From Giardia intestinalis (Eukaryota), in assembly GCA_000002435.2 (NCBI GenBank), contig CM018793.1: a stretch of 64,000 nt of DNA. One strand, 5' to 3'. Below are positions 17,818 through 56,069 of this stretch, one piece after another. The number at the start of each line of letters is the position of its first letter. Within the stretch, counting starts at the first letter, position 1. The notes beneath the pieces are model-generated. The model had not been told where the DNA came from, did no database searches, and saw only the letters and a program-made list of their open reading frames with translations. The translations under genes and the position numbers were made by a program.

Positions 17818-18768
17818 ATGTACAATTGTCGGAGCACACCGGCGACTCCGCGTTGCTCAGTTACCTCTCCTACTCGCTGGGGTGGGTGCCCTGCCTCTAG
17901 GACCCCGTCTTACGACCGCGTGCGGCCAATATCTGTGACGGCCCATCATCCGACTGCCCCTGTAGAGACAGTATTCACTTTGCTCAGCAGGTCTCCTTAT
18001 GCATCCTCTAGTCGTTCTTTGTCCAACAGAGCTGTACCGCAACATATCGCAACCTCTAACCTTCCACATTCTCCGTCGCGCAAGAAACCTTCAGGCTATC
18101 AACATCAGGTCTATCGGCAACGCCTGTCGGTAGATCAGCACAAATCTAAGAGCACTACACGTCCAGTGGACAAGCAATGTGTTCAAAGCGCGCGCACAAC
18201 TAAAACTAATGTTAACTTTCCTAAGCAAAGTTCTACTAAAGAATTACCTTACACTAATACTAATGTTCGCCAAGGCTGCAACAGTAGACAGCAGACTGCT
18301 ACTGCTCAACCTAACAGACTAACGAAGACGCTCTGCAATTCCCCCTGGCACATTTCAAGCAATCTGGCATCCTTAGCGGAGTTTTCTAGCAGCATCTTCA
18401 GTGACGAAGAGACCCCTGTATACAGTGGCAGAGTCAGTGGTGATCCCCGGAAGACTCCTGTTATGATGCAGCCGCAGATCAGCCCTAGCCTAGATGAGAT
18501 TGAAGAACTTGAGGGTAGCGCTCTTCTTAAGCGTTGCCATCATTCAAAGGACACGGATGCCACTGTTCAAAGCAGTCACACAAGCCAGACTGGCAGCAAC
18601 ACCCACACCGATGAGTCGATAATTCCAGCGTTGCCTCCTGGAAGCATGCAGAGCACAGAGTTGATGCAGTACATTCTTGGCGTTCTGATGACCGAGAAGA
18701 GCCCTAGGCCAACTAGGCCTGCTTGGAATAGCGGAGTGTACACCCTTTACAAGCGCAGCAAAGATTAG
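17818..18768 (+). CDS. Hypothetical Ser/Thr/Pro/Arg-rich protein (316 aa).
   Basis: ORF with a true ATG and an A-rich upstream (aaaaaatatttaaag...caaactATG). Low-complexity composition and no recognisable domains. Confidence 0.45.
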   Translation: MYNCRSTPATPRCSVTSPTRWGGCPASRTPSYDRVRPISVTAHHPTAPVETVFTLLSRSPYASSSRSLSNRAVPQHIATSNLPHSPSRKKPSGYQHQVYRQRLSVDQHKSKSTTRPVDKQCVQSARTTKTNVNFPKQSSTKELPYTNTNVRQGCNSRQQTATAQPNRLTKTLCNSPWHISSNLASLAEFSSSIFSDEETPVYSGRVSGDPRKTPVMMQPQISPSLDEIEELEGSALLKRCHHSKDTDATVQSSHTSQTGSNTHTDESIIPALPPGSMQSTELMQYILGVLMTEKSPRPTRPAWNSGVYTLYKRSKD

Positions 18769-22747: not shown

Positions 22748-23839
22748 ATGTTCTCACAAGGACAGTTTTTACTTCCGTCTCTGCCAGCTATGGATCTGAT
22801 GTGCGATCAAAATCCATCTCCACCTCTGCTGTCTTCTTCTCTTCCACTTAGTATCCATACACATAACTCAGTTCATGACCTCGATGCCATCTCCACACCG
22901 GCGGGACTATGTTCGTCCGGCCTCTTATGGAACCCTCCTGAGCACGACACAGTTCTCCCGGAGCCGTGCCCTCTCCAGTCCTCCTCCGGGCTTTTCCACC
23001 CACCCCATGCAGATCCTGATGCCACTATCCTCTTTCCGTGCAATCTAAGAAATACACAGGCTCTTGATGTATTCTCCCAATCTACAAGCTTTAGGACAAC
23101 CGGAGAAGGTGCTCTGACCATAGCAGGCGGGCGTTATCTAGACCCCATCGCTAAAAATCATATGTTGCTGGAGCAGCATCTACACTCGATCAAAGACGAA
23201 TGGGTAGAGACAGCTCTGAAGGTACTGGTGGGTATAACGCAGGAAAACGTAGAGACTTCTGCTGCTGTGGAAAGTGTCCTGATCGAACGCCTGGGGAAGG
23301 AAAGGTACGACGGGCTCCGCACAGCACCGTTGTTTCTATTCCTGAACGTGGTTGCTGCTGGCTTTTGGATGGATGACGTCATGCCTTCCTTTCCAAAGGT
23401 GCTGTCGCAGGAGGATCGAACTAAGAGGTTTGCGAATTCTATTGAGGCGATGTACGAGGCTGTGTTAAGGACTTTGGAGATACCGGCAACACGAGAACAG
23501 CTTGCTGAAAAGACTGGTTTTCAACGCCGTCGACTGAGTAGTGTCATGATGCCTCTTCGGGCTATCGGGCTCATTGCAGAACCGGAAAACCTCAAGAAAG
23601 ACCATCCCAACAGTGACAAGGCTGTTTGTGAACATGACGGAGGGCCGAACTTGATTCTCTGCAGGAATGCCCGACAGGAGGCAGCATCCTTCATGATCTC
23701 CGGCTTCTGTCGCTATTATCGGCAACTCCGCCTCATCCGGCAGCATCTCGAACGGACCATTGGGCTCGTGCGCTATGACAACAGCTTCATTGACGAGCGC
23801 CTGACATATCTGACAAGGCCCCGCCCAGACATGAAATGA
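22748..23839 (+). CDS. Hypothetical protein (363 aa) with a divergent E2F/DP-like winged-helix segment.
   Basis: FQRRRLSSVMMPLRAIGLIAEPEN aligns without gaps to E2F [24 protein letters not shown] (RR...L..IGLI). The rest is unrecognisable. True ATG. Confidence 0.5.
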   Translation: MFSQGQFLLPSLPAMDLMCDQNPSPPLLSSSLPLSIHTHNSVHDLDAISTPAGLCSSGLLWNPPEHDTVLPEPCPLQSSSGLFHPPHADPDATILFPCNLRNTQALDVFSQSTSFRTTGEGALTIAGGRYLDPIAKNHMLLEQHLHSIKDEWVETALKVLVGITQENVETSAAVESVLIERLGKERYDGLRTAPLFLFLNVVAAGFWMDDVMPSFPKVLSQEDRTKRFANSIEAMYEAVLRTLEIPATREQLAEKTGFQRRRLSSVMMPLRAIGLIAEPENLKKDHPNSDKAVCEHDGGPNLILCRNARQEAASFMISGFCRYYRQLRLIRQHLERTIGLVRYDNSFIDERLTYLTRPRPDMK

Positions 23840-28084: not shown

Positions 28085-29668
28085 CTATGTGCGACAAGCG
28101 GGGATGGTCGCGGAAACCAAGCGCATACTTGATTGCAAACAGATGCTTTGAGCTTCCTTCAAGCCAAGAAGTACAGGGATGATGCCGGGAGTATGGGCCT
28201 CGGACAGAAGGACTATTGGTTCCAGCGACGCGTACATAGATTGATTTTGGAGGTACTCGGCCCTCGCCGTGTCTAAAATGTTGGAGGCATTACGCAGAGA
28301 CTGACTGGAGCAAGTCCTAATAAATCTGGACGCAGAATCAAATCCCTGGAATGCGCGGTCTACAACAACAGTATAAGCTACTTCGGAGGTGGTGATGGAG
28401 ACACTTAAAGTTGACGAGGCAAGAGGCTGTGATCTGGCAATAACAGCAGGGACGTAGACTCTCTCGAGGTGCTTGTAGAAGTAGGTTGAACTTTGTGCCT
28501 TATCAGTAGGTATACTAGACAAGTCCTGACTGGCTCCGGTCCGGGGCATCCTCAGCGGAGCAGTGATCTGCGAGTGCTGAACTGCTGGTTGGTCTGGGGT
28601 GTGCGGTGGCGACAGTTGATTGGACGATGCCCCTGAGACCACATTCTCACGTGAGTGTATTTTATCAAATAAGCTTTCAATCTGAGCAAATGCCTGCAAG
28701 GAGTTTGTGGCTCGTGAGGAGATATCTTTCAGCTGATCCCCGCGCACAACTTCATCAGCTGCCAATGTTAAGTTGGGCAATTTAGTGTGAGATGTAAGTG
28801 ATTCAAACAAAGCTGGTGTTGTTGCTACCATCACTACGTCACTTGACACAATCGATTGATGTTCTCCCGGATTGCTTACGAACGAGCACAGCGCTGCTTT
28901 TTCAGCGACGCACTCTTCTTCGTCGAAAAGGGCATTCTGGTCCTCGCAATCCTCAGCCCCTGGCTGTATCTGTATAAAGCGGGGATATGCACGAAGGAGA
29001 ACATACACGAACTCTGTGATAAAAGGGCTGAGCCCATAAAGGATAAGATTGCAACCATCCTCGTTAGACGTTGAAGAAACGACTACGCTACATGCACCAT
29101 CATCTAAGTTAACTGCTGTGATTGCATTATGCGGCACACACAATACCTCAGCTTGCTCTGTATCACTTATTTGCAAGCCAAAAGGTGTTACTGATACTTT
29201 GCAAGGACACGGAGGAAGGTAGCCAGCAGTCAGGGCTTCTCTGGGCCGTGCTCGAGACCCCAATCCTCTTACAAGGACGCTGGGTCGAAGTCCAATTGGC
29301 CTTGTAGCCTGGATCATCATGTTGTAAGAGAGCAGGTCATCAGAGACGCTAAATGGCAGGGAGGCTGTGATGCCTTGGGCGGCATCTTGATCCCTCCGCA
29401 GGGAAGTAAAGATAGCGGACAAGATTGCGTCTCTATATAAAGAATACAGGACGACAGTGCCATGTCCAGTGATATGGAGCCGCAAAAGCTCAGAGCAGTT
29501 TATATCGCACAGTAGTGTAGAGACGTTTCTAATGGGTAACGATATGATGGTCTCCACAACGGCCACATCGATTATGGAGAAAAAAGACGCTATGCATACT
29601 GCGGAATATGGCCGCCTCTGTCCCGAATAAAAGACCTGGGCCGGGTACACAGAACCCTGGGGAGGCAT
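28085..29668 (-). CDS. Hypothetical protein (527 aa).
   Basis: ORF with a true ATG and a very AT-rich upstream (gaatttaaacttaaaatgcctaaagtaaATG). No recognisable domains. Confidence 0.5.
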   Translation of the reverse strand: MPPQGSVYPAQVFYSGQRRPYSAVCIASFFSIIDVAVVETIISLPIRNVSTLLCDINCSELLRLHITGHGTVVLYSLYRDAILSAIFTSLRRDQDAAQGITASLPFSVSDDLLSYNMMIQATRPIGLRPSVLVRGLGSRARPREALTAGYLPPCPCKVSVTPFGLQISDTEQAEVLCVPHNAITAVNLDDGACSVVVSSTSNEDGCNLILYGLSPFITEFVYVLLRAYPRFIQIQPGAEDCEDQNALFDEEECVAEKAALCSFVSNPGEHQSIVSSDVVMVATTPALFESLTSHTKLPNLTLAADEVVRGDQLKDISSRATNSLQAFAQIESLFDKIHSRENVVSGASSNQLSPPHTPDQPAVQHSQITAPLRMPRTGASQDLSSIPTDKAQSSTYFYKHLERVYVPAVIARSQPLASSTLSVSITTSEVAYTVVVDRAFQGFDSASRFIRTCSSQSLRNASNILDTARAEYLQNQSMYASLEPIVLLSEAHTPGIIPVLLGLKEAQSICLQSSMRLVSATIPACRT

Positions 29669-29717: not shown

Positions 29718-30548
29718 ATGTACCGAAGCGGGCCGCTGACCTGCAATGACGATGCCACAGACAGATACCTTCCAGTTTCCAAGCCAAAGAAGAGCACCAG
29801 AGAAATCGTAGTCAAGGATTTCTTGACAATGAACAAAAACATGGATAACGTCCGAAGGAATTCTCCCTACCACAGTGGGACGTCGCAGTACGTTCCCCCA
29901 TCTAAGAATAAGGACGCAGTTGTTTATAAAAAGATAAATTCTCCTGTTCGACGCTCTCCAGAACAGAGAAAGCCCAAGCCAAACATCATATTCAGCCCCG
30001 TGCAGCTTCCCCCAGAGCCAGAGGAGAGCAGGCGCAAACCATTTGTCCCTCAGATCAATAACTCCCAGAGCCATCTCTTGAGTCCATCTCGTTCGAGCGC
30101 CAAGTCTCCAATACGTGGAGTATCCCCGTCGCGCCAAACTACAAACAGACCTGTAACCATAACCTCCCCTATGCGGTCTTCGCAGCAGGAATACACGTAC
30201 GAGTTGTCTGCCCCTGCTGACTTGGGGCTGAGCCGCTCTGTGAGTCAGTCACAATATCGCAGTCCTTCAAAAAGGGGCAAAAACTCCATCATCAACGTAT
30301 CCATTCGCTCCCCTTCTAATTCTCGCGTGGCAGCGTACAACGAGATCCAGCGTTTGACCTTCAGTCCGATGTCTACCAGTACTCGTTGCAGAAGTGAGAT
30401 GGACAGAGACATATTGTCTGATAATAGGGATGCAGTAAGCACGATCACTCGCAAGTCCACGACTATCAAGGCTCCAATGAGATCAGAGCACTATCTTCTT
30501 CCATCTCGCAGAAAGTACCAACAAAACTACACTCTCAATCTAAAATAA
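29718..30548 (+). CDS. Hypothetical basic Ser/Pro/Arg-rich protein (276 aa).
   Basis: ORF with ATG. Divergent from the previous gene across a 50-bp spacer. Low complexity. The antisense 202-aa ORF is judged spurious. Confidence 0.4.
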   Translation: MYRSGPLTCNDDATDRYLPVSKPKKSTREIVVKDFLTMNKNMDNVRRNSPYHSGTSQYVPPSKNKDAVVYKKINSPVRRSPEQRKPKPNIIFSPVQLPPEPEESRRKPFVPQINNSQSHLLSPSRSSAKSPIRGVSPSRQTTNRPVTITSPMRSSQQEYTYELSAPADLGLSRSVSQSQYRSPSKRGKNSIINVSIRSPSNSRVAAYNEIQRLTFSPMSTSTRCRSEMDRDILSDNRDAVSTITRKSTTIKAPMRSEHYLLPSRRKYQQNYTLNLK

Positions 30549-30632: not shown

Positions 30633-32798
30633 TTATTGTGGTTTAACGACTTGTAAAAGGGGTGTAAAGAGTGCTACTATTTCGTTTTCTGAGTTATAAT
30701 TCATGGGGTATCCCCTTATTTCGGGCAGAAACCAGAGGGTTGGAATAATCTGCTGCGTATCAACTAAGACCTCGTCTGGTGGTCTAACGAAGGAGGCCTC
30801 CATCTTCCACAAATTGCCTCCAGAGGCCAGGGGGAGCGAGGCACATTCTTCAGTGTTATGAGCCTCAGCGCCATTCCTCTCCGTAGCAGCGGGTAGTAGT
30901 GCATTTATGTCCACCTTGTCCACTTTGAAGGATAGAGGAGCGTATGGAGCGTACGGCTCTGGACAGATACTCCGAGGGGGAATCTTGTCCCAACACCGAT
31001 GGATGTCCTCAATGAGAAGCACTAGCTGGAATTTTGTCAGGGTTGATAAAAACTGTACTGGGAACTGGGCCTGGCAGACTTCCTCTAAGAGTGTCTTTTC
31101 TGTATCCTTTTGTGTTGCGAATAATTGGAGTCCGAGAGCTACGTCTTGCCCCGTATGTTGGCACTTCGTGTTGGAAGATCCAAAACTATTGTACTGATCG
31201 TGTCCTCCGCGATTTCGTCTATGGTTCTGCAAAGAGTTATAGCTTACCTTGAAAGGAATTTGTGTGAAAATTCCCAGACGAAGAGCAGTAAGCGAGAGGT
31301 CTCGAAAGAGACACCCAGTTTTTATATGGGGAATAAGGACTGGGAATGCAGGAATGTTGTCACAATTGTATGGGGGGTCAGCAAGAAAGCCCAGTGTGAA
31401 GATCCAATGGCATAGAGATGTCTCAAGCATTGAGAATTGAAGAGGATTGTATGGCAGCAGAGCAGCAGAGACAGGATGGTCCAACTCTTTGAAGGCCAGA
31501 GTATCAGGGAGTGGGAATCTTTGCACAATAGAGCTGAGGAGTGCCCAGACAGTGCTCTCGCATTGGGACGGTTCAGTAAAGTCGTCAGCAAGAATCCTAT
31601 ATGCACAAGACACTCCACAGTGCTCTGCAAACTGGAGAATAAAGCTGTTGTTCTGTACGCAGTGCTCATAAGTGGATGGATTGGGGATTGGAAGAACTAG
31701 CGATTTGGTATCAGCAACCAGGACAGAGTAGATCTTTCCGAGAATAAGGTGAAAGTTGCACCCATTGCACCACGGATTAGATATAAGCTTGTCGTGGTCA
31801 AACAGAGGAGGCTCTAGAGATAACCATGCGAGCCATCGTGACACCTCTGTTTTGCAAAGTGCATGCTCGATGGGATATGATATGAGCATGTCGCTTCGTA
31901 GTTGCTGTAACGTGTGTGAACGCGGGGCACATAATTTCCAATCTGGATAGGCGTCCTGTTGTTGCTCTTCTTTAGCCTGTGGAGCAAAACTTGCGTTATC
32001 GGGGAATGGAACCCGGCTGCTGTGGTTCAGCAAAGGAGTATCCTCGACTTGACTCATTGGGGAAGGTGCTGTGGGCCTACTGTATGCTTGTCTAAGATCC
32101 TTCAACAGAAGAAGAAACATACGAAGAAAGTCGGGCCCTGCGCGCGCCAAGTCTCTTTCTATGAACAAATGAGCAGGAGAGACGAGCACATTGGTTCGAA
32201 GCACACTCAGTGCCTTTGTCCAATTGTTATAGGCCACGGCCGGAGTGTGCTGGTCTGAAAGGCCTGGAATGCTTGTGCACCCTAAGAGCTCGACAAGCTT
32301 GCCAAAGATAAACCCGTTCTGCATCGTGGCCTTTATTTTTGCAGGTGCTCCTGCAGTGGGTGTAGGCGAGACTGCGATTGACTGTAGAAGCTCAGGGATC
32401 TGTGCACTGAATGCGCGTGCCCACGGGTCAGTACCTTTCCTCAGTACACCTAGCATCCAAGATAACGTGTCCGCCTCGTCGTAAGTTAGTGCAACATCAT
32501 GTGAATCTGCAAGGGAGGTTGTGCTGGGGAGATCGGCTGGGGCTACATTACAGTGGGCCTTGGAGGTTCTTTGCCCTTTAGATGGAATGCCTGTCGATGC
32601 AGACCGTCTCCTTGTACTCTTACTATCTTTACGAATGGGTGTGCACTCATGTCGCTGTGGAAGAGAAGGTCTGAATGGAAGACCTGACTGCTTCTTTTGA
32701 ATGCCCCTGTCTTCGGCCTCGAGGATATTGAGTCCAATGTTGGGCAGGGAAAAAGCTGGAACAGATGTGTAGTCCTGGGTCTTAAAGAGGCTTTGCAT
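30633..32798 (-). CDS. Hypothetical protein (~721 aa).
   Basis: The track start at 32810 is TTG; the first ATG is at 32798 (MQSLFKT...). No recognisable domains. Confidence 0.5.
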   Translation of the reverse strand: MQSLFKTQDYTSVPAFSLPNIGLNILEAEDRGIQKKQSGLPFRPSLPQRHECTPIRKDSKSTRRRSASTGIPSKGQRTSKAHCNVAPADLPSTTSLADSHDVALTYDEADTLSWMLGVLRKGTDPWARAFSAQIPELLQSIAVSPTPTAGAPAKIKATMQNGFIFGKLVELLGCTSIPGLSDQHTPAVAYNNWTKALSVLRTNVLVSPAHLFIERDLARAGPDFLRMFLLLLKDLRQAYSRPTAPSPMSQVEDTPLLNHSSRVPFPDNASFAPQAKEEQQQDAYPDWKLCAPRSHTLQQLRSDMLISYPIEHALCKTEVSRWLAWLSLEPPLFDHDKLISNPWCNGCNFHLILGKIYSVLVADTKSLVLPIPNPSTYEHCVQNNSFILQFAEHCGVSCAYRILADDFTEPSQCESTVWALLSSIVQRFPLPDTLAFKELDHPVSAALLPYNPLQFSMLETSLCHWIFTLGFLADPPYNCDNIPAFPVLIPHIKTGCLFRDLSLTALRLGIFTQIPFKVSYNSLQNHRRNRGGHDQYNSFGSSNTKCQHTGQDVALGLQLFATQKDTEKTLLEEVCQAQFPVQFLSTLTKFQLVLLIEDIHRCWDKIPPRSICPEPYAPYAPLSFKVDKVDINALLPAATERNGAEAHNTEECASLPLASGGNLWKMEASFVRPPDEVLVDTQQIIPTLWFLPEIRGYPMNYNSENEIVALFTPLLQVVKPQ

Positions 32799-32868
32799 AC
32801 AGTATTGCAATCTGTATACTCAAAAAAACCACATTTTTGCTCCAGAAACACGTGGGTTCAGGCCTTGC

Positions 32869-33876
32869 ATGAGTTTCAATGAGCTCTATGACATCAGCTA
32901 TCATAAGATAGGTGAAAGCGCAGTTGGAATGGTCTATTATGGAACAGAAATCCGCACAAACACGCCCGTGGCAATTAAGCTCATCTGCAAGGCCTCAACA
33001 AAGCTCGATCCCTACTTTATGGAGCGAGAGGCAAATACACTACTATCCATCACCCATGAAAACATCAATCGCGTCCGCGGGATCTATGAGAGTGCAGAAA
33101 ACCTGTACATTGTCATGGACCTCTGCGTAGGAAACGATGTGTTCACTCATGCCATACGGAAAAAGTACTATTCCGAGGACGATGCCCGGGAGATCATCAG
33201 GCAAATCTGTCGAGCTCTAGCCTACCTACACTCGCGTCACATAGCGCACCTGGGGATTAAGCCCGAGAATCTTCTCATAACGTGCAATTCGCAAAGGCCC
33301 ATAGTTTCCCACCTCAATGACAGCGAAGGGCCACAGCCATCTCGGGAGCTTGATGAGAAATACCTTGTGAAGCTTGTGGATGTGATGCTATCTCAGTACC
33401 TACACGGGGGAGAACCGTTGATCAGGCCCGAATACATCTCATTCATGGCTCCAGAAGTCTTGCGCCATCAGCCATACTCCACAGAGCCGGACATCTACGC
33501 CATGGGAGTCACTACTTATCTTCTCCTTGGCGGCGTACTTCCTTACGAGGAGCGTGACGCAGGAGAGCTGCTGGTTCTCATTGAAAAGGGTCAATGGGGC
33601 TTTCAGAATGCAAACTTCAATGGTATTTCAGCTAATGCTAAGGACTTTATTACTCAGTGTCTCAAGCCGGCGATTTCTGAGCGCATTACAGCACGCAAGG
33701 CGCTTCAGCACCCCTGGCTCTGCGATCCTCTACCGCACATAGTTCCCCTCAGCGGAACCCAGTCTCAACTCGAGCGCTATCTCGCCTCTTTGAAATTGCA
33801 CACCATGTCTGTAACAGAACAAGAGCCAATCCCGGCCACAATCTTTACTAATAGTGGGGAGAATGTGCCACAGTAG
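32869..33876 (+). CDS. CAMK-like protein kinase homolog (335 aa) predicted to be catalytically inactive (pseudokinase).
   Basis: Kinase fold is recognisable: GESAVGMVYYG, VAIKLI, an alpha-C Glu, FMAPE and a C-terminal ALQHPWL. However HRD is replaced by HLGIKPENLL, so the catalytic Asp is lost, and DFG is replaced by DVM. Confidence 0.7.
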   Translation: MSFNELYDISYHKIGESAVGMVYYGTEIRTNTPVAIKLICKASTKLDPYFMEREANTLLSITHENINRVRGIYESAENLYIVMDLCVGNDVFTHAIRKKYYSEDDAREIIRQICRALAYLHSRHIAHLGIKPENLLITCNSQRPIVSHLNDSEGPQPSRELDEKYLVKLVDVMLSQYLHGGEPLIRPEYISFMAPEVLRHQPYSTEPDIYAMGVTTYLLLGGVLPYEERDAGELLVLIEKGQWGFQNANFNGISANAKDFITQCLKPAISERITARKALQHPWLCDPLPHIVPLSGTQSQLERYLASLKLHTMSVTEQEPIPATIFTNSGENVPQ

Positions 33877-33990: not shown

Positions 33991-35745
33991 ATGGTTGTTC
34001 CTGGGTTTTCTAGACTTTCAAAAACGGAATTTTGGTGCATGTCAAGCCTGGATACCCCCGTTTCTTCTCTTGAGCAACTCACACGGCTTAAGGTTGAAGC
34101 ACACAGCAACCTCCTGCACGGAGACTTCCAAGGGACACTACAGATCTGTCACGACGTATTACAGATTATTCACCGCCAACCAGAGAGTACGCAGCACGCA
34201 GAAGATCAGATTCTCTTCTTTCTCATGAGAATAGAAGCGGAGCTACGGCTGGGGCTCTTCCAGCAGGCTCGTGAGGGACTCGAAAAGCACATCCCGCCGC
34301 TTCTTGCTCTCCTTTCCGAAGAGCATCCTTTTAACATAACGCACATATTCGACTCTGTCCACCTAGAGCTTGCAATGGGGAATTATGCGACCGCACTGAA
34401 GGCAGCCAAACGACTTATAACTTACATACGTGCAGCTCAGCAAACTGCAGACGACATCACGAGGAACAACTTACAGTTGGCGCGGGCGCTTCTTATGTAT
34501 GCCCATGCAGCAGCTGGGATGAACGACTTCAAGGATGCATTCATTGCCCTTGCAGAGGCCAGAAACATCCAGATGTCCGCTGGCGCCGAGTGCGAAGCAG
34601 CGCTGACGACGGCTCACGAAATTTCCACCCGGCTGCTATCGGGAGATACAACCGATGCTGTGGTCAGTCTCGTTGCAGTGTGTGAAAAGATCCTCACGGA
34701 CAACCCTACCTGGGCTGGCCTGCCCTCGCTTTACCACAACATTGCCGTAGCACTGAACTGCGAGGGTAGACCTTCAGATGCTGTCGACTTTCTTGCGAAG
34801 GCCGCAAGCATGTGCAAGATATTCTATGGCGAAGGGTCTGCTGATTATTGTCGTGAACTTCTGAGCCTTGCGCAGACACAGCTTATCATAGGGAACATGA
34901 GTGAGTGCAGTTTGCTCTTAGAGAGAGTTGGGTCCGTGAGCAGCATGGCAACTGACGGAAATTACTGGTTTATTAAGGGAGATGTCGCATATCTGTCGGG
35001 GGATAGCGAGACGGCCGTCCAGCACTATCGCACAGCTATTATCCATATCACAAACCCAGTTATTAAGGCAGATGCAGAGCAAGCGTTAGCCTCAGCCCTG
35101 CAGGCCTCTGGCTCCCCAAAAGATGCCCTTTTGTTGCTAGACAAGCTAGCTAGTCGCTACGAAAAGCAATATGGAGAGCGCTCGCCGCGGACAGCATCGG
35201 TTTGCGTCTCACTGGGTAACATTTTTCGGCATCAAGCGCGATACAAAGAGTGTCTGGTGCTTTATGAAAGAGCCCTTAACATTTTCGAAGAGACCTATGG
35301 TCGCAGTCATGCGTACGTTGCAACCGTAAAGATCAATATTGGTGGGGTCTACTATACTCAGAGATCCTTCCGGAACGCCCTTATTTACTTTACCCATGTA
35401 AAAGCCATCCGTGAGGCCGTCTTCGGTCCTGTGCATCCACTCACCATTAGATTATATCTAGCAATCGCCAAGACCTACGAGCAAATCTGCATAGAACTAG
35501 CGAGCACAGTCACGGGGATGACCGCTTCAGGTAGTGCGAGCCTGGGTCCTCGAAGCGTCGGGCCAACAACCGGGAACATGGTCAGGCAGATAGCAGGCGA
35601 AGAAAGATCTAGTTTCGAGGAGGCACAAGCATTCTATGATAGGGCGCTAAAGGGGTGCATGGAAGCATATGGACCCAATGCACCCGAAACTATAGAAGTT
35701 CGCAAGAGTATGACGGAGTTGAAGAGACGGCGAAGAAACTGGTGA
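33991..35745 (+). CDS. TPR-repeat protein (584 aa; kinesin-light-chain / nephrocystin-3-like TPR units).
   Basis: Repeated 34-aa helical units with the spacing Y..AL.I.E..YG..HP..A.....IG.VY. The alternative ATG at 34039 has a better AT-rich context than the ATG at 33991. Confidence 0.6.
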   Translation: MVVPGFSRLSKTEFWCMSSLDTPVSSLEQLTRLKVEAHSNLLHGDFQGTLQICHDVLQIIHRQPESTQHAEDQILFFLMRIEAELRLGLFQQAREGLEKHIPPLLALLSEEHPFNITHIFDSVHLELAMGNYATALKAAKRLITYIRAAQQTADDITRNNLQLARALLMYAHAAAGMNDFKDAFIALAEARNIQMSAGAECEAALTTAHEISTRLLSGDTTDAVVSLVAVCEKILTDNPTWAGLPSLYHNIAVALNCEGRPSDAVDFLAKAASMCKIFYGEGSADYCRELLSLAQTQLIIGNMSECSLLLERVGSVSSMATDGNYWFIKGDVAYLSGDSETAVQHYRTAIIHITNPVIKADAEQALASALQASGSPKDALLLLDKLASRYEKQYGERSPRTASVCVSLGNIFRHQARYKECLVLYERALNIFEETYGRSHAYVATVKINIGGVYYTQRSFRNALIYFTHVKAIREAVFGPVHPLTIRLYLAIAKTYEQICIELASTVTGMTASGSASLGPRSVGPTTGNMVRQIAGEERSSFEEAQAFYDRALKGCMEAYGPNAPETIEVRKSMTELKRRRRNW

Positions 35746-35771: not shown

Positions 35772-38700
35772 TTACACAGCTTTGCTCCTACGACAGCACA
35801 AGAACCATACGAGTACACCCACAGCGCAGCCAATTACGGCGATAACGGCAATTGCTATCCCCGTGATCGCGCCGGCAGAAAGAGACGATTTATTGCCCGC
35901 TTCACTCGAGTCTAGGCAAAGGGCGATCCCAGCCTGTTGAGGGGCTATACAAATGCGACAACCCTGAACGCCCTGGTAGCCATCTGTAATGGTTGTATCG
36001 TCACACCGCTTGCAAACGCCCTGAGAGCCACTAAAGGCAGGGAAGAATCCCTCGGTACAAGAAGTACAAGCAGAAGCGGCTGTGCTGCTACATGAGCTGC
36101 AGCCGAGCACACAGTTGGAGCATATGCCATTGGTATTTGTAAAGCCGTCTGCGCAATTTGTGCAAAGCCCGTCCGACGAGGAGGTGCACACAGCTGATCC
36201 AGGGTATCGAGACGTTGCATAGCACCCTCCATTGAAGAGAAAGAGACCTCCTGAACACGATTCGCATGTGCCATCGCCGGATGTTATGCACATCACATTG
36301 CGTGCGGCAGAAACTGGCTCGCATCGCCCATTGATGGGTGCTTCTCCAGGCGTGCACTTGGAACAATAGCGCGTGCCATCAATAATTGCATTACAAACTG
36401 CACAATTACCTGCTGCGGTCGCTGAGCATTCTTGCAAGCACGAGCCAAGACCTGTACCAGTAGAGTGAACGGTACCAGTTGGGCAAGTCAGGCAGTCGTT
36501 CTCTGTACCCCCTCCGCAGGTCTTACAAGAGGTACTGCACGTTACACACTCGCCGTTAGAAAGAAATGAGGAGTCTGTGCATGAGGTGCAGGTTGTTTCG
36601 TTTGTACAGCTTGTGCAGTGTTCGCCGGTGCACGGAGCACACTGTCCTTGCTTGTTGTAGTACCCTTGGTCGCATTTTTCAACACAAGACGCATCAGTCT
36701 GGTGGAGAATGTATCCGTCAGCGCATACCAAGCACGTACTTTCATCAGTGCATGTCATGCAGTTTGCTAGACACTTCTTACAGTGCACGTCGGTTTTACG
36801 GAGACGCATGATAAATCTGGCAAGTACAGATACTTCATAATATCCGCTTTGGCACCCAGTGCAGATACTAGAGTCCTCAGCATCCTCACAGACACAACCA
36901 AGAGGGCAGACCGTCTCGCAAACCACAAGCTCTGTGTCTGGAGTTAACGTAGGAGACGCGCCTGGTCGACATTCCACACATGAGTCTAGATTTTCGTCGC
37001 AACGCAAACAGTTCTCATCATTGCAGTTGAAGCACACATTGTTGATAGATCCCATCCCATCCGGGCATGCGTCCAAACATTGCGTTGATTCCCCGGAGAC
37101 CAGCAGATGCTTTCCCTGGACGCACTGAGTACAAATAGCAGGTCCGGGGCTTGATGGCGTTGTGCACATAGCACAGCCAGCTACTCCATTCCAGGAGGCG
37201 TCCCTAACAATTTGCAAGCTGATTGAATCTGTCCTTTTTCTTCTTATAGATAGTAGCCTTTCTAAGCGCCTCGCTCCGGAAATGCGCGTCGGAATATAAC
37301 GGGTAGGAATGCTGCAACGCATGCAGCGTCCACTCGCTTCATCGGTGGGGTCTACCTCAAAGTATCCGTCCGCACATCCATTGCAAGTACTTGTTCCAGG
37401 AACACATGTACACCCGAGAGGACAGATAGGAACAAGAGCTATGCATGATTTCTTATCTTGAGACAGCTGGTAGTCTGGCATGCACTCGGTACACTTTGTG
37501 TGCTCAGACGCGCTGCACCTGTTACAACCCTCGATTGAGCAGGCGCTGCAGCCCTGTTTATCAGCACACTCGATGCATATATTAACCGATTCGAGAGATC
37601 GTCTATATGCATACCGTCTACCAGGACTGAAAGTATGACCGAAGAAAGTAGCATCATTGGGTACGCGTCCGCAAGAAGAGCAGAAATCTCCACTACATGG
37701 CTCGCAACGTGCCGCGTCAGTTCTAGATGGATCGAATGTGAAGTATCCATCCGCGCACCCCGAACAAATATTTCCAACCGCACATGTACAAATAGAGGGA
37801 CAAGCAGAGCTGTCCTTAACGCATGTCAGGCCATTGAACGAAATGCTGTACCCCAGGAGACAGACACAACGTCCATTTTGCTCCTCTGAAAACTCGGGAC
37901 ATTCGGGAACACATTGATCACTCCGAAGGCTCAGCTTGTATGCTGGATTATAGCACGTGCTGCAGAGCTCGGGATCACCGTTGCACGTCTTGCAGGTCAC
38001 ATGGCAGCTATGGCACGTTCCCTCTACCAAGCCTTTCCCATCGTCGCACAGGGTACAAGTGACCTTTGACGTGCTTCGACGCAAGGACGAACCTTCCACT
38101 GTGCACGTTTTACAACCAGAGATGGCAGAGCTACACCGCACGCAATTCTCTGCTGAGGGCGTAGATAATGTAAAGTATCCCCTCTGACAGCTAACACACG
38201 TGGGAGACACATCTGTGCAGATGCAATTAGAGGGACAATCTTCGTGTCCAGAGTCGTCTAAGACGCAAACTTCCCCCTTTAACGTGTATCCTAAATCACA
38301 TTCTTTGCACACCACAATAAGGTCACCGTTTTCCTGCACCCCTCTGCAATCGATGCAGTGCTCAACTCCAATGACCGATCCATCGGAAAAGCTGCTCAAG
38401 TCACAAGGTATACACTGACCTTTCCAGCTACCACTGGCGAGGAAAAACCCGGATCTGCATGTTACACACTTGTCAATCTCTCCTCCAGAACACGTGTCGC
38501 ATGATTCGTCACATTTCTCACATCCCTGTAGCGTTGAGTAATACCCGTGAATACATGAGCACTTCTTATTTGTAGCTGCAACGGAATTAGGCGGACAAGC
38601 AGAAAGACATTCTGTTAAGGCAGGATTAAAGTACGGTGTTTCAGCAAAGCACTCTGCACACTTATTGGCCCTATGTGGGCACGACTTGCAGCCATTACCA

Positions 38701-40600
38701 CAGGGCTCACACAGCCCATCATCCATCCTATATCCATCCAGACACTCCTCACAGACAATGCTGTCAGACTCAGGAATGTATGAGCATAAGCCACAATGCT
38801 CCACCTCTAGCGCACACGATAAGCAAGTATCCCCTGAGACAACTCCTGCCGCTATAAAGCCCGGCTTACAGCTGGTACACAGAGCAGGAACATCTTGATC
38901 GGCACAGAGACAAGACAGGGGGCACTCGCTGGCTGGCAACGGGGTACAGAATCCGTCCTCATCAGGCTCGTACGCCTCCTGACAAGCAAGGCACTCAGTC
39001 AGGGCAGGATCACAAAGGACACAGTTTGGAATTGCGCAGGCGTTACACTCTGTTTTGTCAGTGCAGTCTACGCACATGTTATCTCGACACGCTGCACAGT
39101 GCTCTCCCTCACAAGCTACACAAGCTGTCCCGGTAAAGAAGTACTTAGGATCACACGCGTTGCAGGTAGCGACATCACTCTTACAATCTAAGCAATGTGC
39201 TATTGTACATGGAGAGCATTCACCTTCGTGAATTCCGTACCCGTCTCTGCACTTAATACATGTTGTCCCAGAAACTTCTGCACAAATGATATTCCCAGGG
39301 ATACTAGCCAGCGTATAGCAGCCTCCTTGAAATAGGAAATAACCTGTAGTCTTGCAGCCTGTGCACGCTCCATCGCGTACATCACAATGGTCGGCCGCTG
39401 CCTCTGTGCACTCTCCGTTGAGGGGGGCCTCCTTCTTTTGGTTACACTTGCTACAGTATACCTTACCCCCTATAGCGATTTGATTTTCTATGGAACAGAT
39501 CTGGAGTCCATAAGATCCTGTCGTTGCGTAGCATCCGCCACTATAAAGTAGATGCTCTCCCTCGCAGCTGATGCAAATCTGGGAAAAGTTTTTCTGACAG
39601 GTTGTTAGGCCTGATGTGCATATGCCTGCTACGGGGACGTCTTCTTCATAGGCACACTTGGTGCACAACGTTCCCTCAAAAGCTGTACAGTGGCCTATTG
39701 CACAGCTCTGAAGCCCGTTTCCTTCTGAGCATAGCTTAACACACCTCCCACTGCTTCGTAGGACATAGCCTTGTTGGCACTGTGTGCAGGACTCGTTCTC
39801 ACAGAGCAAGCAATGATCCACGGGACAATATGTGCATACGCCGTCAGTCACAGGATAATGACTTCCGCATTCTGTGCATTCACCATCACGAACCTCTGCA
39901 CAAATGGCTGATCCCGGATGTTCGTTGGCGTTGTAGCAGCCACCATTGAACAAAAAGTATCCATCGGCAACACAGTTGATGCATTGGCCACTCTCTGCAT
40001 CACAGTACGAGGAATGCTCGTCAGTGCAATGTCCATTGATTGGGGCCTCGTTCTCGTCATTGCATAGGCTACAGTAAAGCATGCCTTCGACAACTATCTG
40101 GTTATCGGTAGCACATATAGACTGGGCTAAAGCACTCTTGCTAGGGTAACAGCCTCCTCGATAAAGTAGGTGTCCTGATTCGCAAGATATGCAGATTCCG
40201 TGACTGTCTTTAACGCACGTTGTAACCCCGGTGTTACATACCCCGGCTGCCGGCACGTCTCCCTCGTGTGCGCACTTTGAGCATAGAGTGTCATCAAACA
40301 CAGTGCAGTGACCAACAGCACAATTTGTCTCCGAGTCTCCTTCAATGCAAAGGTCGACACACCGTCCTCTATTGGTAAGGGTGTACCCGTGGTCACAGAC
40401 TTCACAGATATACGGGTCTGTACATGATGTACAGTTCTCAGGACAGTCTGACACATCACTGAATAGAATGCGCTCTGCAGTGCCGGCCTTAGCTGCCAAA
40501 CGGCACAAGGCGCCGCCCTTCAAGTAATGGTTACTGTTGTGCAGATAATGGTGACGGTTGCTACACGTGCACATTAGGAGAGTAAGAATCCATGTGTGCA
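35772..40600 (-). CDS. High-cysteine membrane protein of the VSP-like cysteine-rich surface protein family (~1608 aa). It has a signal peptide, many CxxC / CxC / GGCY modules, a single C-terminal TM helix and a short cytoplasmic tail CRRSKAV.
   Basis: About 12% Cys. GGCY recurs five times (RGGCYPS, NGGCYNA, SGGCYAT, QGGCYTL, NGGCYAT). The C-terminus is GIAIAVIAVIGCAVGVLVWFLCCRRSKAV. The track start at 40655 is GTG. A true ATG at 40600 (MHTWILTLLMCTCS, a signal-peptide-like segment) is preceded by cacaaaacaaaaATG. Confidence 0.85.
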
Positions 40601-40687
40601 TTTTTGTTTTGTGGGCATCTACTGCAGAAAAGGCTCCATCTCCTATCCTGTACACTTGTAGATATCTGCTGTACTATCGACATCACG

Positions 40688-41695
40688 CTAGAGGTCTACA
40701 AACATGAAGTCTAACAAGGAATCGTCCACATCCTGTGACACGGTGAGAGTTTCTGCCGACCGTGCTCGCCGTGCAGCGGGAATAGTTGGCTGGATAACCG
40801 GCGGAGGAAACTGGACAATACTGGAAAAGGGAGAAGGGTTCTTCTCATCATCTCTCTCAGGTTCTTCATCCCAAGCTACACGGGCATGACGGGCTTGGCG
40901 CCTGGCAAGGGTGGCAAGGGAGGGGTTTTCTACTGCAGTGAGGCTAAGGGACTGTAGATTATCTAGTGTGCCTTTTGCAAGGAGAGAAGACAGGAGAGGT
41001 CCTTGTTTGCAGTTGACTGGATTCGATGGGCACGGCTCGAAAATCATGTTGGAGCTCTGAAGAAGCCCGCAATCTGCACGAAGCCGCATCCCTTTTGAAG
41101 TAGTGCTAGAAGGAGACCCTTGGGGAACGACCGGATCTAGAGACCTATATGGACTATTGTCATGCAAGATTTCTTGTGGCGAAGTTGTATCCGCTGGAAT
41201 TAAGGCTGGGACAAGATTATCCGAAAACTGCGCCCCTGTACATTTCTGTCTCAGCTCCAGCTCATTCTGATCATCCTTATCTTGCCTGAGGGACAGCTTC
41301 GGCTCTACATTCACTGCTTTTGTCCGCTGTTGCTTGGTAGACTTGGCCGAGCGCCGTGGAGAAGCTGGCGGAGAATGCTCTGCCAAGTGATGGACTGAAG
41401 GAGTGGCAGATCCTTGACGTGTCGCTGACCTGTATTTATACTGAAAGTAAGATGGCGGCAAGAACTTTATATTTGTTGTGTATTCATATCTAGGGTGCCC
41501 TGCAGGGCCAGGCACCGCCTCAAAGTCTCGCGAGGCGACTATCTTTGTGCACCGGGGGCGTGTTGTGTGAGGCCTGGTCCTCTTGGAGGGAAGAGAACTT
41601 CTGGGACCTGCACCCTCGGGAGTAGCTTGAGGTGCCTGCGCCTCTGCCTGGAGCTGCCGAGTTCTTGGCCGCGGCGAAGCTCGCCGAGCAGGCAT
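40688..41695 (-). CDS. Hypothetical low-complexity (Pro/Ser/Arg-rich) protein (335 aa). It may be the 3' part of a frameshifted gene that also includes 41520..42119.
   Basis: ORF with ATG. It overlaps the upstream ORF by 176 nt in a different frame. Confidence 0.35.
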   Translation of the reverse strand: MPARRASPRPRTRQLQAEAQAPQATPEGAGPRSSLPSKRTRPHTTRPRCTKIVASRDFEAVPGPAGHPRYEYTTNIKFLPPSYFQYKYRSATRQGSATPSVHHLAEHSPPASPRRSAKSTKQQRTKAVNVEPKLSLRQDKDDQNELELRQKCTGAQFSDNLVPALIPADTTSPQEILHDNSPYRSLDPVVPQGSPSSTTSKGMRLRADCGLLQSSNMIFEPCPSNPVNCKQGPLLSSLLAKGTLDNLQSLSLTAVENPSLATLARRQARHARVAWDEEPERDDEKNPSPFSSIVQFPPPVIQPTIPAARRARSAETLTVSQDVDDSLLDFMFVDL

Positions 41696-42817: not shown

Positions 42818-44449
42818 TCAGTCGTTCAGTCCAATCATGTTCTTTGCAACGTTCATCACCATGGCTCCCTTTGTAGGGATGCCTGTTCCACTTTCCTTGG
42901 GCCCGAATACGCTCATGAGGCCCTTCGACTCCTTCGTACCCTTCTTACTCTTCTTGCTGTCATCCTCACTAGTCCGCTTACGAATCTTGCAGCGCTTGCA
43001 CTGAACAAATACATATGTCACCCAGAGGGCTACTGCAACCGGAGATAGTGCGACTATAGCCCAGTACATGTTCAGAAACCAAGCATCGAATTTGCATGCA
43101 TTGGCAACTGTGTCCTTGAAGAGTTTGTACACACCAGACGCATTAGTATATTCGCTCATCATCACGATAAGAAACAGGAGAGACGGGAGCGCACCTACAC
43201 ACATCATCATAGAATTAAATACAAAGCCCACAAGGGGCGTGTTGTTCCGCTCCATAGGGTAGATCTTCATGAAAAACACAAACTTGAGTCCCAGGATTGT
43301 CACCCCGTTAACAAAACAGAACAAGATATAAATGGCGAGGCTACTGTAAAAGATTATCGACAGGATGGGGAAAGGCAAGGCACTGTCCATGGCTGCGAAT
43401 GCTTTGTCTAAAATGTAAAAGGGCTTAGGTAGCGCGGCCGCTATTATCTGGATGTACCAGAGCACAGAAACTATTAAGAAAAATATTCCAAGTACCAGTA
43501 GTAAATAGTACTTGAGTGGATTAGCTGTCTCCTTGATATTCATGGCGAGAGTGTCAGTGTACTCCCTCTCCATCTCCTCGAGGTCTCGCTCAAGCTTCTC
43601 GAAATTACGTGCCTCTTTCCTTAAAGATGACCTGCTGAACAGGGCGCTTCTTTCGTTTCTCTTTATCATCCTTTCAACGTGGTCTCGGCTGTACTCTTTG
43701 ATCAGTAGTTCATATATTCTGTCGTACTCCTTCAAAAGATTGAGTGACCTCTGCTTGTAGCGCTGCTTGAACGTGAGGAGCTCGTCCTTGTTCATGCTAT
43801 GAGGCCGTTTGATAAACCTAATGATGTATGATACGGGATAAATAAATAGCCCGACGGATAAGAACAAAACGAAAATTATGCTACCGAGGAAGCAAGCAAA
43901 AACAATGAAGTAAATGTAGATAGGCATGGTCGAAGATGTGGACGCTTTCAGAATCCTCTCTGGTGCAGCCAGGGCATTTGTCGTCTGCTTTGGGCAGGTG
44001 TTCCTTACTTCCAGTAGCCACCACAGAAATGCAGACAAGAGCAGCGTGCTCGCGATGATGACTGCGGCCTTCCAGAGGCCCCCAAGCAACGACCTTCCTA
44101 TCGTTTCTCCGGCATTACGAGAAGAGATGTAGAAGTAGCAGAGAGGGAGGAGAAATGTTGCCAAAAAAATTGCGAAGAGCATCAATCCGACCCAAATATA
44201 TGACATGATGGTCGGATTTATCCCAACTGGAGACGTAGCATTGAACGTTGAACTATTCGCCCGATCAAGGGGGATCATGACAGGGAGCATGAACAGGAAG
44301 AAAAGAGAGAAGACAACTAAAATCCGAGACGGCAACTCGACCCATTTGTCGCTAGGCCTCGACCAGTAAAGCAATATGTAAATTGACATGGCCAGCACGA
44401 TGGCTGCAGCCCCCAGAGCAAGCCCCAGGAGAACCCAGGAGACACCCAT
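42818..44449 (-). CDS. LMBR1-like polytopic membrane protein (543 aa).
   Basis: About 9 predicted TM helices, with a central cytoplasmic coiled-coil loop (LKEYDRIYELLIKEYSRDHVERMIKRNE...LERDLEEMEREY) between TM blocks. This is the arrangement characteristic of LMBR1/LIMR proteins. A-rich initiator (caaaatcaaaaaagtgaATG). Confidence 0.55.
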   Translation of the reverse strand: MGVSWVLLGLALGAAAIVLAMSIYILLYWSRPSDKWVELPSRILVVFSLFFLFMLPVMIPLDRANSSTFNATSPVGINPTIMSYIWVGLMLFAIFLATFLLPLCYFYISSRNAGETIGRSLLGGLWKAAVIIASTLLLSAFLWWLLEVRNTCPKQTTNALAAPERILKASTSSTMPIYIYFIVFACFLGSIIFVLFLSVGLFIYPVSYIIRFIKRPHSMNKDELLTFKQRYKQRSLNLLKEYDRIYELLIKEYSRDHVERMIKRNERSALFSRSSLRKEARNFEKLERDLEEMEREYTDTLAMNIKETANPLKYYLLLVLGIFFLIVSVLWYIQIIAAALPKPFYILDKAFAAMDSALPFPILSIIFYSSLAIYILFCFVNGVTILGLKFVFFMKIYPMERNNTPLVGFVFNSMMMCVGALPSLLFLIVMMSEYTNASGVYKLFKDTVANACKFDAWFLNMYWAIVALSPVAVALWVTYVFVQCKRCKIRKRTSEDDSKKSKKGTKESKGLMSVFGPKESGTGIPTKGAMVMNVAKNMIGLND

Positions 44450-51855: not shown

Positions 51856-51911
51856 AGAGGGTGAGGGTCACAGGGGAGGATGTGCGCGAAGGCGTGTAAT
51901 CAAAAATTCAT

Positions 51912-54062: not shown

Positions 54063-54131
54063 ATGTCCTGTAAGTTTGGCGCGGTGACCCCCAAGTGTAT
54101 AAAATTCTCCACCCTGTGACATTTTTAAAAA

Positions 54132-56003: not shown

Positions 56004-56069
56004 GCTCTCTTCTGGACCTGCGCTGCAAAGTGTAAATGAATCTCTGGTAGCGTTAGGAAGAATAAAAAG

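Follow-up and report, generated by a model that had tools for sequence, protein, structure and literature searches.

In most kinomes, pseudokinases account for ~10% of the members. HER3 and JAK2 JH2 (both HRN) and STRAD-alpha, which belong to the TK and STE groups, have lost the catalytic Asp and keep the beta3 Lys, the alpha-C Glu, the loop Asn, and the DFG Asp. In these proteins such a residue pattern accompanies ATP binding and an allosteric or scaffold function. CASK, Tribbles 1-3, and PSKH2 are animal CAMK-group folds with degraded catalytic motifs that serve mainly in protein-protein interactions; CASK keeps the catalytic Asp and is missing the DFG Asp, and Tribbles keeps the catalytic Asp and is without the glycine loop and DFG. 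Here we describe a calcium/calmodulin-dependent kinase I (CaMKI)-like protein of Giardia intestinalis, GL50803_11178, whose coding sequence lies at 32869..33876 on the plus strand of a 64,000-nucleotide stretch of contig CM018793.1 (assembly GCA_000002435.2; assemblage A, WB type), referred to below as the window. The protein resembles HER3, JAK2 JH2, and STRAD-alpha in lacking the catalytic Asp and keeping the same Lys, Glu, Asn, and Asp, but differs from them in kinase group, in having Gly rather than Asn or Ser at the catalytic position, and in an altered DFG motif. It is probably a conserved CaMKI-family pseudokinase that acts by binding, likely as a nucleotide-binding scaffold or allosteric partner.

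The open reading frame (ORF) encodes 335 amino acids plus a stop codon. An exact-sequence look-up identifies the product as XP_001708942.1, KAE8305345.1, and UniProt A8B843, named 'Kinase, CAMK CAMK1 [Giardia intestinalis]', and finds the identical protein on 189 contigs. The dead status of this gene is already known and has been on record since the kinome catalogue of Manning et al. 2011 (Genome Biol 12:R66, PMC3218828), in which Additional file 1 gives a sequence identical to that of the window's protein and annotates it as 'Dead - missing D166'. The same catalogue assigns the gene to CAMK/CAMK1 with 1:1:1 orthology among strains WB, P15, and GS, terms it 'Primordial', and reports no obvious calmodulin-binding domain, while its main table lists ORF 11178 as Giardia's single CAMK1 under the label 'Calcium-dependent signaling' and nothing more (PMC3218828). 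The entry gives the missing D166 alone, and the catalogue makes no mention of the replacement of DFG by DVM, the missing Gly-Thr of the P+1 loop, the invariance of the regulatory helix, the non-RD HLD motif seen in diplomonad relatives (and with it an HLD ancestor), the timing of the loss, or the strength of selection (dN/dS), which are the incremental additions made here. Literature searches by gene and protein identifier and by Giardia plus CAMK1 found no later functional work on GL50803_11178, and the protein is not named in the main text of a 2025 kinome re-annotation (PMC12538575). A literature match to '11178' in PMC11631216 was rejected, the number being an identifier within the reference list.

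The protein kinase domain covers residues 12-284 (32902..33720, +). It matches the Pfam Pkinase profile PF00069 over both lobes (E=2.8e-50; positions 5-263 of the 263-position profile; score 171.6 bits, cutoff 31.7), and AlphaFold2, run with a 50-sequence alignment, predicts a confident kinase fold (pLDDT 82.7, pTM 0.83). Profile match and predicted fold together place GL50803_11178 in the eukaryotic protein kinase superfamily, in agreement with an earlier reading of the letters alone (the sequence-only reading), which had claimed a whole kinase fold and predicted a pseudokinase. The best PDB sequence relatives are CaMKI (4fg7, E=6.6e-38), CaMKI-gamma/delta, CaMKIV, STK33, and CaMKII, with E-values of ~1e-38 to 1e-34; CDPK and DAPK follow after the CaMKI and CaMKIV types. 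With CaMKI, CaMKI-gamma/delta, and CaMKIV as its top matches, the protein shows CaMKI-family similarity, and GL50803_11178 is Giardia's single CaMKI-family member and the parasite's only CaM-kinase-I-type gene. The best Foldseek matches of the model are autoinhibited CaMKII (2vn9, 2bdw), CaMKI, and TgCDPK1 (TM 0.72-0.80). CASK, Tribbles, and PSKH2 are absent from the best 60 PDB sequence matches.

GL50803_11178 is 28-33% identical to the catalytically intact CaMKI, CaMKIV, and CaMKII (e.g., human CaMKI, PDB 4fg7 / 1a06), with which it shares the order of a kinase domain followed by a regulatory helix and the CAMK signature 'ALxHPW'. In contrast to these kinases, it has HLG for HRD and DVM for DFG, has lost the P+1 GT, is without the conserved activation-loop Thr and the conserved basic calmodulin-binding stretch, and has a 20-28-residue disordered insert ahead of beta8. 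This insert, between beta7 and beta8 at residues 137-164 (33277..33360, +), is predicted to be disordered (pLDDT <50 at residues 143-161) and varies between assemblages. It is ~16 residues shorter in G. muris, and a shorter insert is common to relatives from Hexamita and to the homolog P0234, described below.

HMMER alignments set Giardia 'HIAHLGIKPENLL' opposite CaMKI 'GIVHRDLKPENLL', and Giardia 'VKLVDVMLS' opposite CaMKI 'IMISDFGLS'. The HRD position is occupied by H127-L128-G129 (codons CAC CTG GGG, 33247-33255) and the DFG position by D171-V172-M173 (33379-33387). Both the loss of the catalytic base and the replacement of the DFG Phe-Gly, as proposed in the sequence-only reading, were upheld by CAMK alignments and by an independent profile hidden Markov model (HMM). 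In the degenerate catalytic loop HLGIKPEN (residues 127-134; 33247..33270, +), the HRD Arg is replaced by Leu and the catalytic-base Asp by Gly, while K131 and N134 are kept. The loop contains no Asp, and no acidic residue besides the canonical E133. In the activation segment from DVM to APE (residues 171-196; 33379..33456, +), the Asp of DFG remains, Val-Met stands in place of Phe-Gly, 'MLSQYLHGG' is invariant, and the Gly-Thr of the P+1 loop is gone. The segment has no conserved phospho-acceptor; at the position of PKA T197, G. intestinalis has R or K, G. muris has T, and catalytically intact diplomonad relatives have A or G. A CaMKK-target Thr read by the HRD Arg is not conserved either, with Leu in place of this Arg across the whole diplomonad CAMK1 clade.

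The remaining kinase motifs listed in the sequence-only reading were found. These are the VAIK motif (32968..32979, +), which supplies the ATP-binding Lys K37 (PKA K72), its partner, the alpha-C Glu E54 (33028-33030, +), KPEN with N134, APE at residues 194-196, and ALQHPWL at residues 278-284; K37 and E54 are invariant across all orthologs and homologs aligned. The glycine-rich loop GESAVG (residues 15-20; 32911..32928, +) is there as that reading had it, but all four G. intestinalis-type sequences have Ser for the middle Gly of GxGxxG (GES(A/T)VG); the loop reads GTGTTG in G. muris and GxGxxG in catalytically intact relatives. In PKA numbering, the kept residues are L49, G50, G55, V57, A70, K72, E91, K168, E170, N171, L173, D184, E208, D220, and R280, and the lost ones are R165, D166, F185, G186, G200, and T201, with G52 lost in G. 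intestinalis only. The metal-binding Asp (D171, PKA D184) is thus retained, as the same reading had stated, alongside K72, E91, K168, and N171, and the structural anchors D208, E196, and R272 and the adenine-pocket hydrophobics of the Giardia protein are kept as well. The catalytic triad K72/D166/D184 is incomplete; K37 and D171 are present, and Gly129 stands at position 166 in six Giardia orthologs. With a kinase fold, a lost canonical catalytic residue, and a state conserved in orthologs, GL50803_11178 is a pseudokinase by sequence definition.

The extent of the divergence was gauged on 36 alignment columns that are >=90% conserved among 56 catalytically intact CAMKs. Of these columns, 25 are unchanged in every one of the six Giardia orthologs and 8 differ in every one. 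The non-conservative changes specific to Giardia are D129G, F172V/T, G173M, and a deletion of the P+1 Gly, the adjacent Thr also being gone. R128L and W210Y are common to Giardia and its catalytically intact diplomonad relatives.

The assignment of DVM to the DFG position depends on alignment register. Many CaMKI-like homologs contain 'DVMLSDFGLS', so that BLAST places 'DVMLS' of Giardia a strand too early. Short (~300 amino acids) CaMKI-like proteins from JGI metagenomes (P0003-P0038) form a large family with this word; the 5-mer DVMLS, shared out of register with them, biases word-seeded searches toward them and misplaces DFG in BLAST. A BLAST motif read-out over 233 homologs was dropped, as it returned a false 'DVM' in many intact kinases carrying 'DVMLSDFGLS'. 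Instead, the register was determined with an HMM of 57 catalytically intact CAMKs without this word, which placed D171 on the DFG Asp in the top posterior class in 5/5 orthologs tested. The alternative of 'QYL' as the DFG equivalent was ruled out by the HMM posteriors, by a predicted beta8 strand (165-169) before D171, and by the length of the activation segment, D171 being 23 residues from the Ala of APE vs 24 in CaMKI. Three independent aligners or HMMs agree on the motif register. A mis-assignment of HRD and DFG, the error that the sequence-only reading had named as fatal to its pseudokinase prediction, was therefore not found, and the prediction is supported by motif assignment, ortholog conservation, and predicted fold.

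Assemblages A, B, and E, a further G. intestinalis-like assembly, and G. muris (TNJ29394.1) all have HLG. They also retain D-x-M, which reads DTM in G. muris and DVM in the others. These results answer the check on ortholog conservation suggested in the sequence-only reading. HLGIKPEN is 100% conserved over the six Giardia orthologs. The HLG codons vary synonymously between lineages (Leu CTG/CTA/TTG/CTT, Gly GGG/GGA), indicating that the HLG residues themselves are under selection. Among assemblages A, B, and E, dN/dS of GL50803_11178 is 0.021-0.028 (Nei-Gojobori); synonymous sites are near saturation between A and B, and the least saturated pair, A-E (dS 0.88), gives 0.027. This ratio equals that of the neighboring kinesin light chain (KLC)-like gene (0.021-0.030) and is 4-7 times below that of the upstream gene (0.09-0.18). 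A G. muris-type copy (P0002) on a syntenic contig (L001) forms one 90%-identity cluster with TNJ29394.1 and is 56-58% identical to the window's protein, compared with 25% and 46% for the flanking genes on that contig and their window copies. An exhaustive search of representative sequences returned no further orthologs, its matches being mostly multi-kinase-domain giants. Strong purifying selection has maintained the losses in GL50803_11178 since before G. intestinalis and G. muris diverged.

A search with a profile of the Giardia orthologs identified Hexamita inflata 'CAMK CAMK1' paralogs, P0236, and P0234 as the nearest relatives outside Giardia. The closest of these homologs are 37-43% identical to the Giardia protein, with 37-38% for H. 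inflata CAMK1 (CAL6079512.1 / CAL5993763.1) and 43% for P0234. Like the Giardia protein, the diplomonad relatives have the non-RD Leu (HL-), Tyr for the alpha-F Trp, an insert ahead of beta8, and the post-kinase helix 'L.GTQ..L..Y.A.L.L'. However, they have HLD, DFG, the P+1 GT, and a Thr gatekeeper, and judged by these motifs look catalytically competent. The gatekeeper in Giardia is Met (G. intestinalis) or Gln (G. muris). The H. inflata paralogs P0235 and P0124, together with P0234 and P0236, have Ala or Gly at the activation-loop phospho-site and share a 'P.NYD...KF.P' insert. The members of the diplomonad CAMK1 clade look like constitutively structured, CaMKK-independent kinases.

P0234 is located on contig 136656 (6001-6981; locus L005) of SRA run SRR31929897, in a neighborhood of helicase, class IV aminotransferase, and peptidase M49 genes that differs from the Giardia locus. 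The adjacent DBP4-type helicase is 40% identical to its G. muris counterpart and matches G. muris at 1.7e-153 and G. lamblia at 6.5e-138, with the next named taxa at ~1e-101. Since this helicase is far closer to Giardia than to other named taxa, the source of P0234 is taken to be a relative of Giardia. The ancestor was thus a non-RD HLD kinase without an activation-loop phospho-acceptor and with an intact catalytic centre. Because the closest non-Giardia relatives read HLD and DFG, the losses in the catalytic centre date to the Giardia stem, where they happened once and preceded the divergence of G. muris and G. intestinalis. By descent, GL50803_11178 belongs to the CaMKI family, in a non-RD clade specific to diplomonads. 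CASK, Tribbles, and PSKH2 are not its orthologs, and its loss pattern differs from those of these animal CAMK pseudokinases; given that its nearest relatives are catalytically intact diplomonad CAMK1s, the pattern arose independently within Giardia.

The most conserved part of the protein lies outside the kinase domain. The post-kinase segment PHIVPLSGTQSQLERYLASLK (residues 289-309; 33733..33795, +) is the longest invariant run in five aligned orthologs and is identical in the NCBI G. muris protein. The next longest invariant runs are alpha-F (210-222), the catalytic loop (125-136), MLSQYLHGG (173-181), and KYYSEDDAR (99-107). The segment begins a predicted helix at residues 295-316 (pLDDT ~89 for residues 281-310), and residues 301-315 match the CAMK consensus '...lkkfnakrklkaavk' of the autoinhibitory or junction helix in the HMM alignment. 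Foldseek alignments of 320-330 columns extend through the regulatory helix of autoinhibited CaMKII (2vn9, 2bdw). In the model, then, a putative CAMK autoinhibitory helix directly follows the kinase domain. The stretch aligned to the calmodulin-binding half (~residues 310-328) is unconserved; in G. intestinalis it is acidic and contains Pro, and the G. muris protein terminates inside it. The C-terminal tail EQEPIPATIFTNSGENVPQ (33817..33873, +), at the position of the basic calmodulin-binding helix of CaMKI/II, is acidic, contains Pro, is predicted to be disordered (pLDDT 33-34), and is absent in G. muris. With neither a conserved calmodulin-binding stretch nor a conserved CaMKK target Thr, and with the phospho-Thr-reading Arg absent clade-wide, GL50803_11178 is unlikely to be under canonical Ca2+/calmodulin-CaMKK control.

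GL50803_11178 has kept the kinase fold, the ATP/Mg contacts K37, E54, K131, N134, and D171, and a CAMK-type autoinhibitory helix. Gone are three elements on which phosphotransfer and the positioning of a peptide substrate depend, namely the catalytic base (D replaced by G), the Phe-Gly of DFG (replaced by V/T-M), and the Gly-Thr of the P+1 loop. In the proposed mechanism, the protein would no longer phosphorylate substrates and would function via binding, with a frozen pseudo-active site (HLGIKPENLL, MLSQYLHGG) and the invariant helix 289-309 as its working surfaces. The protein is very probably catalytically inactive, and the chances that it still binds nucleotide appear about even. We infer a scaffold or allosteric role by elimination, and by analogy the protein would most plausibly act like the base-lacking, nucleotide-binding pseudokinases HER3, JAK2 JH2, and STRAD-alpha. 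Several points weigh against this interpretation. No biochemical, expression, or localisation data on GL50803_11178 were found, the Manning catalogue being the sole relevant literature match, and the SAGE columns for the gene are blank in its table (PMC3218828). Owing to the Ser in the G. intestinalis glycine loop, the positioning of ATP phosphates is perhaps unconstrained, which mildly weakens the nucleotide-binding step. Some kinases without canonical residues also keep weak or atypical activity, such as HER3, which has Asn at the catalytic-base position, and CASK, a Mg-independent kinase.

Such precedents raise the alternative of a low-activity or mechanistically atypical kinase that works without the canonical catalytic base. 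K37, E54, K131, N134, D171, and the backbone anchors of the catalytic loop are invariant across Giardia, and the catalytic loop is among the most conserved blocks, a pattern expected of an active site in use. However, three losses occur together, one of them leaving a Gly with no side chain in place of D166; the lost P+1 Gly-Thr normally hydrogen-bonds the catalytic Asp, the loop offers no substitute Asp or Glu save the canonical E133, and decay of the glycine loop has begun in G. intestinalis. We regard residual catalysis as improbable on this balance, and an equally improbable alternative is a non-catalytic Ca2+/calmodulin sensor whose helix binds calmodulin, making the protein a Ca2+-dependent scaffold or a decoy for calmodulin or CaMKK. 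The extreme conservation of a CAMK regulatory-type helix is consistent with such a sensor, as are the retention of a CAMKK gene in Giardia (ORF 96363) and the view of Manning et al. that the C-terminal extension, weakly similar to other CAMKs, 'might be calmodulin binding' (PMC3218828). Nevertheless, the invariant part of the helix matches the autoinhibitory half of the regulatory segment, whereas the half that would bind calmodulin is the acidic, Pro-containing stretch within which the G. muris protein ends. The R/K at the CaMKK target position in G. intestinalis and the absence of the HRD Arg across the diplomonad clade also argue against a sensor.

That the gene is functionless and decaying, or that HLG and DVM are artefacts of alignment, sequencing, or strain, could be proposed from the lost catalytic residues and the lack of recorded SAGE tags, but the reading frame is intact in every assembly, the exact protein recurs on 189 contigs, and dN/dS stays at 0.02-0.03 with synonymous variation inside the HLG codons. 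Both the motifs and the gene order persist in G. muris, and the register was confirmed by three aligners or HMMs. Decay and artefact are refuted by these tests of selection, synteny, and register and are excluded. The conserved pseudokinase acting by binding thus remains the preferred explanation. One specific form of it, modelled on the pairing of a pseudokinase with an active kinase in STRAD-LKB1 and HER3-EGFR, is that the sole CaMKI was converted to a nucleotide-binding allosteric partner, a helix-locked dead kinase that pairs with and controls an active kinase (for example CaMKK ORF 96363 or an AMPK-like CAMKL) or controls the adjacent KLC. This form is a long shot; if it were true, a minimal kinome would have rebuilt its Ca2+-kinase cascade with a pseudokinase at the center.

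Because the only CaMKI-type gene is predicted to be dead, though conserved like its housekeeping neighbor, the canonical arm of phosphorylation from calmodulin through CaMKK to CaMKI is probably missing in Giardia. This is useful for the annotation of calcium signaling in Giardia and for the choice of kinase drug targets, as ATP-site inhibitors of this protein may have no effect. The locus also offers a case in which the change from HLD to an HLG pseudokinase can be dated cleanly.

Upstream of GL50803_11178, a divergent intergenic region of 70 bp (32799..32868), the distance given in the sequence-only reading, ends at the first ATG of the neighboring gene (32798), contains the A-rich stretch CAAAAAAACCACATTTTTG, and is a putative promoter. 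The divergently transcribed gene (30633..32798, -) encodes a hypothetical protein of 721 amino acids from this ATG (725 in the form extending to 32810) without a Pfam domain. It is only 66% identical between assemblages A and B, with the dN/dS of 0.09-0.18 given above, and a homolog occupies the same position on the G. muris-type contig (25% identity, E=7e-28); the gene keeps its place beside the pseudokinase despite its fast evolution.

Downstream lies a KLC-like tetratricopeptide repeat (TPR) protein named 'Kinesin light chain protein' (568-amino-acid form at 34039..35745, +; Pfam TPR_12, E=2e-33). The gene has two annotated starts, at 33991 (584 amino acids, older WB annotation) and at 34039 (568 amino acids, current WB annotation and assemblages B and E), and the A/T-rich element TTTCAAAAACGGAATTTTGG directly upstream of the ATG at 34039 favors the shorter form. 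The TPR gene had been placed 115 bp downstream of the pseudokinase; an ORF does begin at 33991, after a gap of 114 bp, but the better-supported start leaves 162 bp. In assemblages B and E, the KLC-like gene sits at the corresponding place, as does the copy on the G. muris-type contig, which is 46% identical. A functional link between the pseudokinase and KLC was considered on account of the conserved gene order but is of low probability; W243 and W283, the sole Trp residues of the pseudokinase, form no W-acidic KLC-binding motif.

Both genes downstream of the pseudokinase fit the Giardia origin of the window. At 35772-40655 (-), a 1627-amino-acid cysteine-rich protein matches the Giardia variant-specific surface protein (VSP) family PF03302 in 8 stretches (E=1.5e-82). 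It has a C-terminal membrane anchor and the tail '...CCRRSKAV', the canonical VSP ending being 'CRGKA', and resembles high-cysteine membrane proteins more than true VSPs; its orthologs in assemblages B and E are 1609 amino acids long and have the same position. Four consecutive ankyrin-repeat genes on the plus strand at 49609-57503 encode proteins of 748, 716, 623, and 477 amino acids (Ank_2, E=1e-16 to 1e-52) and resemble the Giardia 'protein 21.1' and Nek-ankyrin expansions. The best-scoring ankyrin stretches of the 748- and 623-amino-acid proteins are at the C-terminal end. Six further ORFs of 276-543 amino acids around the locus (17818-18768, 22748-23839, 28085-29668, 29718-30548, 40688-41695, and 42818-44449) have no Pfam match at E<=0.001, and the product of the one at 29718-30548 is very rich in Ser, Pro, and Arg.

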